Of a stretch of 13,093 nt of DNA, positions 1 to 13,093 are shown in pieces. Position numbers and translations under genes: made by a program. This DNA is from an uncultured Gemmatimonadota bacterium (GTDB taxonomy: Bacteria > SM23-81 > DAOVCL01): NCBI GenBank assembly GCA_964626665.1, contig CAZVGK010000052.1:1-13093 (forward strand), in the 5' to 3' direction. Numbering within the stretch: the first letter of the stretch is position 1; every line of letters begins with the position of its first letter. Below the pieces are notes generated by a model. The model saw nothing but the letters and a program-made list of their open reading frames with translations, had not been told where the DNA came from and searched no databases.

Positions 1-300
1 AGTTCCTATCAGTTCCATTTGGTATCTTGCCACTGCCTTAGACCCCGTCGGGTTCTCGTAACCTCGCCACTCTCGGTTAAGAGAATACTGCCTGCTGCCA
101 AATGAAGGGCATCGGCCTCCAAGACGCTGGTTATTTCGGGGCTCAATACATTCACTCTCGTTGCGGCCCGATACCTCCCGCCTCCCAGCTTCACACAGCT
201 CGTTACCTCCCTGTGCGTGGGATTTGGTGCTGGGCTGGTGGCTAACCTTTGCCCAGACCAGACTTGCACTGGTAAGAACTAATAAGCTTCCTCGGCGCAC
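1..300 (-). mobile_element. Group II intron, 5' part (domain I; IIB-like bacterial class), truncated by window edge
   Basis: Minus strand starts at 300 with the consensus 5' boundary GTGCG(CCGAG). It carries domain-I-like motifs (AGTGCAAGTCTGGT, TTGAGCCCCGAAAT, GCCGA-TGCC-loop-GGCA-GCAGGC) and ends in GGAACT at the edge. Loop UCAUUU (105-100) pairs with the last 6 exon nt AGAUGG (306-301), as expected for EBS1/IBS1. RT ORF and domains V/VI are outside the window; subclass is from recall of motifs and is not certain. Confidence 0.88.
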
Positions 301-5908: not shown

Positions 5909-6016
5909 CAGCGACTGAACGGTTAGATCCCCTCCCCTGACCTGGACAGAAGAGGGTTCTGCCGCCTCACCTTTCATCATCCACATCTTCCAGCAGGTTA
6001 GACAAACTCACTGGAA
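5909..6016 (-). ncRNA. Unidentified structured element, copy A
   Basis: Homologous to 12350-12475 (+): 20/26 identical in the 5' block and 47/67 in the 3' block by manual alignment, with conserved stems. Whether it is transcribed is unknown. Confidence 0.5.
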
Positions 6017-10253: not shown

Positions 10254-10949
10254 CTATTGTTTGGCCTCATCCACGAAATTTTTCCTCAATAGGTTGGCTG
10301 CCCGATGAGCAGCCCTCAATGGCTCAGGCAGCCTATATCCCTTAGCCGCGCCAAGGACTACCTCAATGGCCACCTCTAAGCTCACCTTATACCCGGGGGA
10401 GACCCAGAGGGGCTTCACCCCATCCCTTGTCCTTAGAATAGCTCCGATAGGCTTATCCCCCTGCAAAAGGGGAGAGTACTGACCTCTCCTCCTCGGAGGG
10501 GGTTCCCCCTCCCCCCAAAGCCGTGATTTAGCACAACCAATGGTGGGTAGATCCAGCTCTATCCCCAGTTGGGTAGCCAAACCCACCCCCCGGGGATGGG
10601 CAATCCCTTGGCCATCCAGAAGCATTATGTCCACCCCAGTGGAGAGCTGGTGGTAAGCCTCCTTGATCACCGGCCCCTCCCTGAAGGCCAAAAGGCCAGG
10701 GATATAGGGATAACCTGTTCTCCTCACCGCTCCCACTTCCTCTAACCCCACCAGCTCCGGGTAGCTGAAGACGGCCACAACCCCAAACACCCATCCCTGG
10801 TAATAGGAGACATCGGCTCCGGCTATCCTTTTAATGGCCTTTCCCTCCCAGCGCAGGGAGACATTTTCCCTTAGCTTTTCCTGAATGGCTATAGCCACTT
10901 GAGGGGTGAGCTTCAAATCAACTCCTGGGCCCCTATCCTCTGGCTCCAT
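10254..10949 (-). CDS. nfi: Endonuclease V (deoxyinosine 3' endonuclease)
   Basis: GADVSY, PYIPGLLAFRE wedge, DGQGIAHPR, IGCAKS, RLPEP.R.AH motifs. Exact start uncertain. Confidence 0.95.
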   Translation of the reverse strand: MEPEDRGPGVDLKLTPQVAIAIQEKLRENVSLRWEGKAIKRIAGADVSYYQGWVFGVVAVFSYPELVGLEEVGAVRRTGYPYIPGLLAFREGPVIKEAYHQLSTGVDIMLLDGQGIAHPRGVGLATQLGIELDLPTIGCAKSRLWGEGEPPPRRRGQYSPLLQGDKPIGAILRTRDGVKPLWVSPGYKVSLEVAIEVVLGAAKGYRLPEPLRAAHRAANLLRKNFVDEAKQ

Positions 10950-12085
10950 CTTTTGTAGTCTCGCAGGGTAAAGCTCCTCCGGGTATTCTCTTCCTTCCCC
11001 ATAGCCAGCTCCTTTATCCCACAGATGGGATTCTTACAGGTAAGACAGGCCCCGCTGCATTTTGCCGCCGGCTGGAAAAGCCCATCCCTTTTTACATAGA
11101 TGGGGATATCTATCCCCTCGCAGTTGGTTGAACTCATAAACTCGCGGTTCAGCCCTATCGGTTTCCCCTCCCGCACCTCATATTCCATACAAAGGGCAAA
11201 GGTAACCCCATATTTATCACAGATTTCCCTGAGCTTGCCGAATACAAGCCTGCGATAGCCAATGCGCGCCTGCAAGGAGTTGCCAATCCTCTCCTTATAG
11301 AGCCTCCTCAGATCATACCCGGCCCCCAGGGAGGAAAACTTCTCCCACATCCCCTTGGCCATATTCAGGGGGATATCCAAAATGCTGGCCACTATATGGT
11401 TGGCTCCAGAGCTCACCGCCCGGCGCACCAACTCCTCCAATTCTTTATAACTATCGGTGAGAAAGGGGATGATGGGGTCAATCCTACAGACGGAGTGGAG
11501 CCCGGCCTTGGCCAATCTCGTGAGGTTATCAAAGAGCTCTTCAGTGGTTGCCCCCTCCTCCATCAGGTTTTGCCTCAACCCCTCATTAAGGGTGAGAATG
11601 GACACCTGCCCAAACGAGTGTTTCTGGAGCCTGAGAAGCTCTATGGCCTCCTGGGGTATGGGGGCCTTGGTGATAAACTCAATTGGTATATTTCTCCGCA
11701 CAAACTCCTTGATTATCTTCAAGGAGAGGGAGTAATAGGCCTCAATTCCCTGAAAGGGATCGGTCACCGGAGAGAGGTAACCACAACTGGCTACCCTCAG
11801 GGAATCCAACTGTTTGGCCACCTCCTGATCGAAATCTTGGCAAACGGTGATGATCCCCCTTTCCCGGAAGAGCCTGAAGTATCCGGGCAAGGCATGGGCA
11901 TAACAGAAGAAGCAATTTATGGAACAGCCGTTATATGGATTGACAAGGAGCCTTTCCGATGTGCACTCCCTCTTCCCCTCCCACCAACCATGCAGCTTCT
12001 TCTTGGACTGAATTAGAATATGGGGATAAGGGAGAGGGATAACCTCATAGTTCTCCCTACCCCAAAGGAGAAAAGATTGAGCCAT
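10913..12085 (-). CDS. Radical SAM protein, SplB/COG1533-like, with extra C-terminal Cys cluster
   Basis: NPYNGCSINCFFCYA (CxxxCxxC), TDPFQ, ITK, RIDPIIP motifs; C-terminal CSGACLTCKNPIC. Confidence 0.85.
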   Translation of the reverse strand: MAQSFLLWGRENYEVIPLPYPHILIQSKKKLHGWWEGKRECTSERLLVNPYNGCSINCFFCYAHALPGYFRLFRERGIITVCQDFDQEVAKQLDSLRVASCGYLSPVTDPFQGIEAYYSLSLKIIKEFVRRNIPIEFITKAPIPQEAIELLRLQKHSFGQVSILTLNEGLRQNLMEEGATTEELFDNLTRLAKAGLHSVCRIDPIIPFLTDSYKELEELVRRAVSSGANHIVASILDIPLNMAKGMWEKFSSLGAGYDLRRLYKERIGNSLQARIGYRRLVFGKLREICDKYGVTFALCMEYEVREGKPIGLNREFMSSTNCEGIDIPIYVKRDGLFQPAAKCSGACLTCKNPICGIKELAMGKEENTRRSFTLRDYKRWSQRIGAQELI

Positions 12086-12090
12086 CACTA

Positions 12091-12120: not shown

Positions 12121-12208
12121 CCCTTTTCTCTATACTTTTTGAACCTCATAGTTTGCGGCGAAAGAAAAGGGGGTAGATGGGGTCGGAGACTTAACCAGAT
12201 CTATTCAT

Positions 12209-12339
12209 GACTGCACAGCAAAAAGGGCGAAAAATAAGGTAGCCGCAACCTTTAGGTTGCGTAAGTGATTGATTTATAATAGCTATTTTCGCAGGCTAAA
12301 GCCTGCGGCTACCGATTCTATAGTTTTTGCAGGGGGACC
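12209..12339. mobile_element. MITE-like element containing an inverted GTAG-type REP doublet
   Basis: GGTAGCCGCAACC-TTTA-GGTTGCG (12238-12261) and CGCAGGC-TAAA-GCCTGCGGCTACC (12290-12313). Imperfect outer IR with GCAAAAA/TTTTTGC. Flanked by direct repeat ATTCAT (12203-12208, 12340-12345). Confidence 0.7.
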
Positions 12340-12349
12340 ATTCATAAGT

Positions 12350-12475
12350 TTCCAATGGCTTTATGTAATCTGCTGTGGCTTTGTGGATTGGGGATAACCC
12401 CAGCCCCAAAAGCGAGGTGGTAGAACCCCCGTTCTGCCCCGGTCAGATCAGGAAAGCTGACCGCCCAGCCATTGG
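12350..12475 (+). ncRNA. Unidentified structured element, copy B
   Basis: Closing stem CCAATGGCT/AGCCATTGG encloses hairpins AATCTGC/GTGGATT, TGGGG/CCCCA, GGTAGAAC/GTTCTGCC and GGTCAG/CTGACC; homologous to 5909-6016. Confidence 0.55.
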
Positions 12476-12529
12476 CAATCTGCAGCTACAGGCAGATTCT
12501 TGTGAACAATTCGGACTAATACCCTTCCT

Positions 12530-12560
12530 AAAAAAACCGCCGTGGGGAACCCCACGGCGG
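12530..12560 (-). terminator. Rho-independent terminator of the secreted-protein gene
   Basis: Palindrome CCGCCGTGGGG/CCCCACGGCGG followed by T7 on the minus strand, about 33 nt after the stop codon. Confidence 0.88.
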
Positions 12561-12593
12561 CGGCGGAAGAGAAAACTTGGTAAGCTGCAAAGT

Positions 12594-13093
12594 TCATCGC
12601 AACAAAATCATCCTCTTGGTTGCCTCTTCCCCTTGGGCCTGGATGCGGCAGAAGTAGATACCTGAGGGAAGTCCTCTCGGCTTCCAGGACAAGGATTTGT
12701 AGCCAGCCCCTTGAAATCCATCGAAAAGCGTAGCCAACCTCTGCCCTAAAACATTGTAAATGGTCAACCTGACCAAGCCGGCCTGAGGCAGAAAATACCT
12801 TATCTTCGTTGACGAGTTAAAGGGATTAGGATAGTTGGGAAAGAGGAGCAATCTTTTAGGGAGATATTGAGAAAAAGTAAAATTCACTTCTATAGTTTCA
12901 CCGTTGAAGAGCTCAACCCAAAGGGTGTCAGAAGAAAAAGTATCTATCTGGGCGATAAGCATATAGGGGCCGGGGATGAGATCATCAAGTTGAAACTGTC
13001 CCTCGGAATTACTGTATGCAGAATACGGTTCAATACCATATACCCCCAGTTCCGGAAAAAAAATTGAAAGATTATGGTATATCAAGTAGTTAC
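12594..13093 (-). CDS. Secreted protein with T9SS type A-like C-terminal sorting domain, 5' partial
   Basis: NYPNPFN..T.I.Y.LP..G.V.L.IYNVLGQ...LPSG.YF......KRMILLR, preceded by a prealbumin/carboxypeptidase-regulatory-like segment (SNSEGQFQLDDLIPGPY). The frame stays open to the window edge. Confidence 0.88.
   Translation of the reverse strand, partial: NYLIYHNLSIFFPELGVYGIEPYSAYSNSEGQFQLDDLIPGPYMLIAQIDTFSSDTLWVELFNGETIEVNFTFSQYLPKRLLLFPNYPNPFNSSTKIRYFLPQAGLVRLTIYNVLGQRLATLFDGFQGAGYKSLSWKPRGLPSGIYFCRIQAQGEEATKRMILLR

Follow-up and report, generated by a model that had tools for sequence, protein, structure and literature searches.

A multi-stem element in an uncultured Gemmatimonadota genome is very probably the interior of a MITE with IS1380-type ends and an embedded REP-like hairpin doublet

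The question raised by this locus is whether a multi-stem element, seen twice in one contig of an uncultured Gemmatimonadota bacterium (13,093 nt, analysed as a whole and called the window below), is a structured RNA or a piece of mobile DNA that resembles one. The preliminary description placed the element at 12350-12475 of the + strand (copy B), aligned it with a diverged copy on the - strand (copy A), observed compensatory substitutions in a closing stem, and proposed a dispersed family of non-coding RNAs, of ribozymes, or of elements mobilised through RNA or single-stranded DNA. Our analysis indicates that the multi-stem element is very probably the interior of a non-coding MITE of about 185 nt, which has IS1380-type ends and carries a REP-like hairpin doublet. 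The dispersed family, including its mobile-DNA option, was thus correctly foreseen, while its RNA and ribozyme options found no support in the Rfam, covariation, G-U and orientation results given below.

The likeness between the two copies could be reproduced. The 26-mer of copy A lies at 5991-6016 (- strand), had no match in 200 shuffles, and is identical to that of copy B at 20 of 26 positions; the 3' blocks agree in 46 of 66 columns, where 47 of 67 had been counted before. This is far above chance, and the HMM of the family finds copy A with E=1e-16. The closing stem of B is perfectly paired, and in that of A (CAGTGAGT/AGTCGCTG) 7 of 8 pairs persist; two pairs have changed on both sides, one has become G-U and one is mismatched. 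The conserved hairpins GGYAGAA/TTCTGYC and GGTCAG/CTRACC are also real. However, two copies was an undercount and the coordinates were too narrow: a search of the window's own genome for more homologues found many of them, dispersed, with about nine long copies and the hairpin core at 277 places, and the unit that contains copy B is longer on both sides and bounded by terminal inverted repeats (Table 1). The sole ORF over B is a mechanical one of 96 aa (12375-12665) that runs across the repeat boundaries.

Table 1. Coordinates of MITE-B, of copy A and of neighbouring features in the window
Feature	Position	Strand	Basis or remark
MITE-B, whole unit	12195-12515	+	321 nt with nested insert
Left flank TTAA, candidate 4-bp target-site duplication	12191-12194	+	3 of 4 positions match right flank CTAA
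5' terminal inverted repeat of MITE-B, outer part, CCAGATCTATTCATGA	12195-12210	+	TIR scan; pairs with 12500-12515
Family Y repeat, nested inside the 5' terminal inverted repeat	12211-12339	+	blastn, aligned copies
MITE-B body, enclosing the 12350-12475 element and the inner remainder of the terminal repeat	12340-12499	+	Long-copy alignments, folds, pair counts
Sub-terminal inverted repeat CCAATGGCT / AGCCATTGG (closing stem)	12352-12360 / 12467-12475	+	Within MITE-B body
Middle hairpin TTGGGG-ATAA-CCCCAG	12388-12403	+	Within MITE-B body
Embedded REP-like hairpin doublet, begins GAGGT	12414-12466	+	Core of the family of 304 matches at 277 places
Doublet hairpin 1, GGTAGAA-CCCCCG-TTCTGCC	12419-12438	+	Motif counts
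Doublet hairpin 2, GGTCAGATC-AGGAAAGC-TGACC	12441-12462	+	Motif counts
3' hairpin AATCTGC / GCAGATT	12477-12483 / 12492-12498	+	Within MITE-B body
3' terminal inverted repeat TTGTGAACAATTCGGA, 16 nt	12500-12515	+	TIR scan
Right flank CTAA, candidate target-site duplication	12516-12519	+	Flank statistics of the family
Terminator-like hairpin of the - strand gene 12594-13085	12536-12561	-	Context
Promoter-like site of the radical-SAM gene (10913-12088)	12120-12091	-	Context
Copy A, decayed MITE-B member	6034 to about 5886	-	Profile E=7.7e-15, model positions 3-147
5' terminal inverted repeat of copy A, CCCGATCTGTTCACAA	6034-6019	-	Retained
Sub-terminal repeat arms of copy A	6014-6006, 5916-5909	-	Retained, as is the hairpin doublet

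The limits of the unit were given by the long copies, which remain conserved past 12350-12475 in two segments (..CCCGATCTATTCATAAA on the 5' side, TTTGTGAATAATTCGGG.. on the 3' side) that are inverted repeats of each other. Both ends carry a terminal inverted repeat (TIR) of 16-20 nt with the consensus CCCGAwyTATTCAyAAA. In the genome, which comprises 3.17 Mb in 63 contigs and is 99.65% complete, this motif has 139 matches at up to two mismatches, and with up to three mismatches allowed it forms 47 inward-facing pairs whose members lie 42-434 nt apart. The 4 bp that flank these pairs are identical in 15 of the 47, whereas 2000 permutations gave 3.19 on average and never more than 9; among the same pairs, identical flanks of 2, 3, 5, 6 or 8 bp were not in excess. 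The commonest flanks are TTAG, CTAA, TTAA and CTAG, and non-palindromic examples such as CAAG/CAAG, CAAA/CAAA and ATTA/ATTA are also present. The flanks represent a target-site duplication of 4 bp, preferentially at YTAR-like sequences. A perfect duplication is confined to the 15 pairs mentioned, and the flanks of B itself match imperfectly (Table 1).

When the 47 pairs were compared all against all by blastn, they fell into clusters of 23, 4, 3, 2 and 2 members plus 13 singletons. The cluster of four is the B subfamily, whose members measure 182-185 nt, apart from B itself with its insert. A profile of 192 positions built from four intact B-type copies is spanned over most of its length by seven copies (C41, C52-B, C24, C53, C45, C2 and C17), and it also recovers two diverged or truncated copies (C52-A, which is copy A of the window, and C12) as well as several copies of the 3' half. 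Copy A is an older, truncated member, in which the middle hairpin and the 3' TIR are absent. In these terms, the closing stem of the preliminary description is the sub-terminal inverted repeat of a MITE, and the conserved hairpins are REP modules.

The 5' end of B seems degenerate at about 12331-12348 because another small repeat, family Y, was inserted there. The inserted segment is bordered by ATTCATGA (12203-12210) and ATTCATAA (12340-12347), a duplicated 8-mer of the TIR that it splits. Family Y has a pair of hairpins (GCCGCAACC..GGTTGCG and GCAGGC..GCCTGC) and inverted ends of its own (CTGCAxxGCAAAAAGG ... TTTTTGCAG). By blastn it gave 21 rows, 20 excluding the query, of which 11 copies were aligned with their flanks, and there are many further copies in congeners. 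In the MITE-B copy on C2, it is the 3' terminal repeat that contains a Y element.

Concerning its distribution, the B family was found in both of the two same-genus genomes searched and in none of four other genomes of the phylum. Of 24 more distant genomes, one gave a single weak match (E=0.0056), and the other 23 gave none. The two congeners have 46 and 71 matches to the TIR pattern and none to the reversed-pattern control. Insertion polymorphism could be observed in both directions. In genome G001, the genes on either side of B are neighbours on a single contig, separated by about 159 nt as compared with 467 nt in the window's genome (G000), and the block of 321 nt is absent. Conversely, G001 has a B-family copy on contig C152, with CTAC/CTAG flanks and without hairpin 1, and the orthologous spacer on contig C35 of G000 is empty. 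It should be noted that both "empty" sites are without a clean footprint, their surrounding spacers being diverged. In G002, the left and right flanks of B are on separate contigs. The 24 sequencing runs listed for the stretch are all DNA contigs of environmental metagenomes, with no RNA run among them. In four of these 24 no contig bridging the B flanks without the element was found; contigs break inside the repeats, which makes this result uninformative either way.

MITE-B has the general features of bacterial MITEs, of which Correia, ERIC, RUP and Nezha are examples: it is small, non-coding, multi-copy and intergenic, it has TIRs and a target duplication of fixed length, it forms hairpins, and its copies are dispersed with insertion polymorphism. 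The difference is that here many subfamilies with unlike interiors share one TIR. The MaeMITEs of Microcystis are tabulated as bacterial MITEs in the pertinent part of PMC2779907.

The nature of the ends was indicated by other genomes. In a scan with one genome per species, the exact 18-mer of the TIR, GCCCGAATTATTCATAAA, was present in at least 118 stretches. In one of them, a contig of a Phycisphaeraceae MAG (L164), two 18-mers lie in inverted orientation 1.64 kb apart, with the flanks cTTAG / CTAGt, around an ORF of 444 aa that matches PF13701 with E=1.9e-164 and NF033539, "IS1380 family transposase", with 413.7 bits (cut-off 180). By tblastn, 19 of the 118 loci, among the matches listed, have an IS1380-like ORF whose start lies about 80-100 nt in from the motif; these include a full-length copy of 47% identity in a complete Marinobacter genome and, in one Sedimenticola MAG, many copies at contig ends. 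Since exact ends of this kind surround IS1380 transposase ORFs, the ends of the MITE are IS1380-family ends. An autonomous IS1380 partner would be expected to have CCCGAATTATTCATAAA at its ends. Target duplications of the IS1380 family are listed in ISfinder as 4-5 bp, and the 4 bp observed here fit. The 1.66-kb element in L164 and a full-length relative (L221) share with the MITE an identical TIR, and in L164 also the YTAR-like flanks. In contrast to these insertion sequences, the MITE measures about 185 nt and has no transposase gene, and its interior is unrelated repeat DNA rather than a deleted transposase.

No match to PF13701 was found in the window's genome or in G001, both of them draft assemblies, and G002 gave a sub-threshold match of 15.1 bits. 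The three assemblies searched consist of 63 to about 220 contigs, and insertion sequences often fail to assemble in such drafts. As no IS1380 transposase was found in this genome, the mobilising enzyme is inferred from other phyla. The PF13358 (IS630-type) and PF13359 profiles had zero matches in the genome. Other transposase genes were considered as partners and discarded: the PF01609 (DDE_Tnp_1) loci on C8, C14, C19 and C31 have different ends, which in C8 and C31 are CTCTGTACAGGACAAAAAT, and two DUF772/IS5-like copies end in GAGGCTGTTTAAAAAT, unlike the MITE. An origin from the IS5 group, which the 4-bp YTAR flanks had suggested, was dropped after the IS1380 match. In the titles and abstracts searched, MITEs and IS1380 never appear together, and no literature linking them was found; passages of two papers, one of them PMC2779907, list both kinds of element separately and unlinked.

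The second layer of the element is the hairpin doublet. A DNA search of the own genome gave 41 matches, and iterated nhmmer went from 43 to 256 and then to 304 matches at 277 places. Coverage of the model is uneven: 8-14 matches reach its 5' third, and 261-294 span positions 76-101. It is the two short palindromic hairpins that account for the abundance; they make up a unit of about 60-75 nt with the consensus cGAGGT-GGCAGAA-ccccga-TTCTGCC-ACC, then 3-17 nt, then CCGTCAGA..TCTGACGG-CTCrG. Its ends are sharp (cGAGGT...GGCTCrG) and only imperfectly inverted. Motif counts gave 151 sites for hairpin 1 (54 of them the exact 20-mer) and 102 for hairpin 2. The variants of hairpin 2, which depart from one another in the inner part of the stem, are still perfect palindromes, namely GTCAGATG..CATCTGAC in 22 copies, GTCAGATC..GATCTGAC in 15 and GTCAGAA..TTCTGAC in 20, and since all these forms are palindromic, some force keeps the hairpin potential, whether on DNA or on RNA, a point that weighs against the MITE reading. 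The unit is extragenic: 264 of 278 doublet places fall outside the gene calls, and 3971 of 5000 random points (79%) are genic on the same rough, ORF-based map, whose coding fraction is 0.80. Between co-directional genes, 90 doublets have the orientation of the genes and 107 are antisense, that is, without bias. An inward-facing TIR is present within 260 nt of only 43 of the 278 doublets, and 9 of the 47 TIR pairs contain a doublet; therefore, the doublet is a repeat in its own right, which travels as cargo in the B subfamily.

The doublet resembles the REP sequences and REPINs associated with RAYTs (Bertels & Rainey 2011, PMC3116915; Di Nocera et al. 2013, PMC3733652): the units are palindromes of 20-26 nt at hundreds of extragenic sites, mostly doublets, with variants that remain palindromic. 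It differs in that its two hairpins are usually not exact inverted copies: hairpin 2 comes close to the reverse complement of hairpin 1 in one of its forms, whereas stem and loop are different in the commoner ones. REP dimers within longer palindromic elements are among the arrangements reported in the relevant part of Di Nocera et al. (PMC3733652), and MITE-B has the same arrangement. The tagged REP super-families are defined there by unpaired GTAG or CGTC tags (PMC3733652). Identity with a GTAG- or CGTC-tagged REP was considered and rejected, as these tetranucleotides are paired here, within GGTAGAA..TTCTGCC and CCGTCAGA..TCTGACGG.

The compensatory pattern was evaluated on eight related long copies with 53 pairs in six helices (the terminal repeat, the closing stem, the middle hairpin, the two REP hairpins and the 3' hairpin), a sample that gives the test limited power. 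Across the family the pattern does not hold. Pairing amounted to 83.3%, compared with 82.8% after shuffling (129 of 500 shuffles as high), double-changed pairs were 6 compared with 4.7 (146 of 500), and the covariation score was 0.131 compared with 0.122 (106 of 500). The three double changes of the closing stem are single cells of the alignment, mostly in copy A. The preference of G-U pairs for one strand (B+/A-), also claimed previously, proved weak in these eight copies, where 34 G-U cells stand against 21 A-C cells and the excess is driven by few inherited positions; across the 278-place doublet family it is absent, with 63 against 67 (35/31 and 28/36).

How the element spread, and whether its fold matters, admits several readings. 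The one with the most in its favour after the IS1380-type MITE is that the hairpin core represents a REPIN, mobilised in single-stranded form by an HUH (Y1) transposase of the RAYT type, and that the long element spreads or has spread likewise, and not via its IS1380-type ends. The genome has eight matches to Y1_Tnp (PF01797), and several of these have other families of palindromic repeats on either side, as RAYTs do. Hairpin 2 in its commonest "AA" form, GTCAGAATCGGGGTTCTGAC (20 exact copies), is almost the reverse complement of hairpin 1, GGCAGAACCCCGATTCTGCC (54 exact copies), so that the two yield an inverted doublet. Sharp ends, extragenic position and high copy number point in the same direction. 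However, the doublet stands on both sides of none of the eight Y1_Tnp loci. The Y1 gene at C2:106944 has a single doublet about 100 nt upstream and, on both sides, a palindrome of the family Y type. Unpaired GTAG/CGTC tags are absent, CGTC and G(T/C)AG sitting within stems, and the long element has TIRs and 4-bp duplications of its own that account for its spread. We therefore regard this reading as possible but on the doubtful side; of the earlier proposal of a route through HUH enzymes and single-stranded DNA, the part that concerns the long element is not sustained, and such a route may apply to the embedded doublet only. The long element does not look mobilised by RNA or reverse transcriptase; it bears the marks of a derivative of a cut-and-paste DDE transposon (TIRs, 4-bp duplications and IS1380-type ends). 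A related reading takes MITE-B for a hybrid of two mobility systems, in which an IS1380-type double-stranded shell encloses a REP-like doublet that either moves on its own account or serves as a binding site for a host or HUH protein. We consider it highly improbable. If it were true, each layer could hitch-hike on the other, and the doublet, with about 277 copies, would be a REP class without a dedicated flanking transposase; in a rarer variant of the same reading, the doublet would be transcribed and serve as an RNA module.

A structured RNA (an sRNA, a ribozyme or a riboswitch-like family) with a fold under selection, whose flanking inverted repeats would merely extend the closing helix, appears extremely unlikely. 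It could be argued for from the + strand of B, which folds at -54.1 kcal/mol (z=-3.85, with 0 of 200 shuffles as good), from the two double changes that separate A and B in the closing stem, and from the slight G-U excess in the eight copies. Nevertheless, the opposite strand of B folds well too (z=-2.67), and copy A is unremarkable on both strands (z=-1.26 and -1.45). RNAalifold gave an unfavourable covariation term of +1.72 and did not recover the closing stem; all five covariation measures lay inside the 500 shuffles, 106 to 399 of which reached the observed value. The closing stem is broken in other copies, helix 2 is 81% paired, and in the G001 copy the 5' arm of the closing stem is altered without compensation in the 3' arm. 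Among the doublets, either orientation relative to genes is seen, and target-site duplications and IS1380-type ends are foreign to RNA genes. Rfam 15 has no match to B at the gathering score or at E<=5; at copy A there is just a chance-level match to sR36 (5953-5984, - strand, E=4.1, 15.7 bits compared with a gathering score of 55), one of two chance-level matches at E<=5 in the whole window besides a group II intron. That intron (domains D1-D4, 33-266, - strand) is the sole Rfam family match in the window, in which ARAGORN detected no tRNA or tmRNA. Taken together, the results fit palindromic repeat DNA and lend no support to a strand-specific RNA, as far as the sequence can indicate. Improbable as well is that the copies might have been co-opted in cis, with A serving yebC as a structured 5' leader or promoter and B acting before the radical-SAM promoter as an insulator or antisense element. 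Copy A does end 14 nt ahead of the yebC start codon (5872), by the ribosome-binding site and in the sense orientation, with its 3' TIR replaced or lost there, and YebC domains were detected in the product of that gene; B, in turn, sits between the terminator-like hairpin and the promoter-like site listed in Table 1. Against this, copy A is not conserved with its gene, as in a relative whose YebC is 88% identical its place is taken by a spacer of about 130 nt that could not be convincingly aligned, and the ortholog of the B locus in G001 does without B. Moreover, A and B are oppositely oriented relative to their neighbour genes, and the argument that had been drawn from this against a shared cis role holds.

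The reading as a MITE with IS1380-type ends would most likely involve an IS1380-type DDE transposase acting in trans, which would have moved the element as double-stranded DNA, by cut-and-paste or copy-paste. The doublet may have been captured by the progenitor of the MITE, or may have been inserted before the subfamily was amplified, and copy B would later have been struck by the third small repeat, family Y, in its 5' inverted repeat. The hairpins would be kept as palindromic repeat DNA and not through selection on an RNA fold.

What looked like a covarying RNA is thus nested selfish DNA, a MITE/REP mosaic that belongs to a genus-restricted superfamily, and it is not an RNA gene. When two copies of such mosaics are compared, the outcome can mimic a multi-stem pattern with compensatory changes. 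Mosaic clusters of intergenic repeats are known in other bacteria, such as the BIMEs of E. coli and the intergenic mosaic elements of Neisseria, and the likeness lies in small modules interleaved or nested within the same intergenic regions; the difference is that genuine transposon ends and target duplications mark one of the layers here. The elements of Neisseria are mentioned in the relevant part of PMC3733652.

Furthermore, the sequence of one IS1380-type end is base for base the same in several phyla; in the present assembly it bounds many MITE subfamilies, and no autonomous copy was found. Among the Y1 loci of the genome, no mobilising enzyme was found for the doublet of 277 places. In this uncultured lineage small repeats are unusually plentiful, and a single spacer of 320 nt contains at least three nested layers of them. 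These repeats explain breaks between contigs, and their masking is advisable in searches for RNA motifs in this genus.

It is noteworthy that several of the Y1_Tnp (HUH) genes in G000, the genome of 3.17 Mb to which the window belongs, are bracketed by multi-copy palindromes, each gene having its own (for example, AATAGGGACACTTCCTATT, TGTGGATGATAACATCCACA and GTCAGGAGGTAACTCCTGAC). Since every one of these genes has its own palindromes, the arrangement suggests that this 3.2-Mb genome contains several REP/RAYT-like systems.

Family Y, a second small repeat, which in the window is nested in the 5' terminal repeat of MITE-B (the non-coding element with IS1380-type terminal inverted repeats), has a unit of about 125 nt with its own inverted ends and two internal hairpins, and AT-rich duplications of about 8 bp border its copies. 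In two copies of MITE-B, on contigs C52 (that of the window) and C2, family Y interrupts a terminal repeat. The Y1 transposase gene at C2:106944-107249 has a family Y hairpin pair on either side.

The cargo of MITE-B is variable within the subfamily, because the copy at G001:C152:2079-2239 (L132), in a congener, has kept hairpin 2 of the REP-like doublet and is missing hairpin 1. Regarding the IS1380-type ends, a 42-bp element of G000 (C4:119545-119586, flanked by CTAA and TTTA) consists of little beyond two back-to-back terminal repeats. The exact 18-mer end GCCCGAATTATTCATAAA was present at 118 or more loci (L148-L265) across many phyla, in MAGs and isolates, the hosts including Planctomycetota, Gammaproteobacteria, Clostridia and Entotheonella, among others. 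An IS1380-like ORF was found beside it at only 19 of 118 loci among the matches listed; at the loci that have no such adjoining ORF, the 18-mer may belong to a MITE, stand as a solo end or match by chance.

Features of the window and of G000
Feature	Location	Strand	Score
Por_Secre_tail gene (terminal domain), upstream of MITE-B	window 12594-13085	-	
Group II intron D1-D4 domain (RF02005)	window 33-266	-	125 bits, E=1e-35
Family Y copies	window 12211-12339; C7:98193-98320; C1:207714-207852; C3:47279-47408; others		
Palindrome-bracketed Y1_Tnp genes	C21:26114-26443; C21:29154-29483; C2:27927-28121; C5:112879-113106; C2:91655-91981		
IS4-like element, ends CTCTGTACAGGACAAAAAT	C8:~10400-11700; C31:1-500		
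DUF772/IS5-like element, ends GAGGCTGTTTAAAAAT	C8:59470-59661; C12:56837-57028		

Other insertion sequences were also observed in G000: an IS4-like element, one copy of which is cut by a contig end, and a DUF772/IS5-like element whose two copies are 96% identical. In the gene upstream of MITE-B, the Por_Secre_tail domain (type IX secretion sorting) hints at an FCB-group lineage for the genome. The group II intron domain sits at the left edge of the window; the remainder of the intron would be expected close to the start of the window or past it, as would a reverse transcriptase, should there be one.
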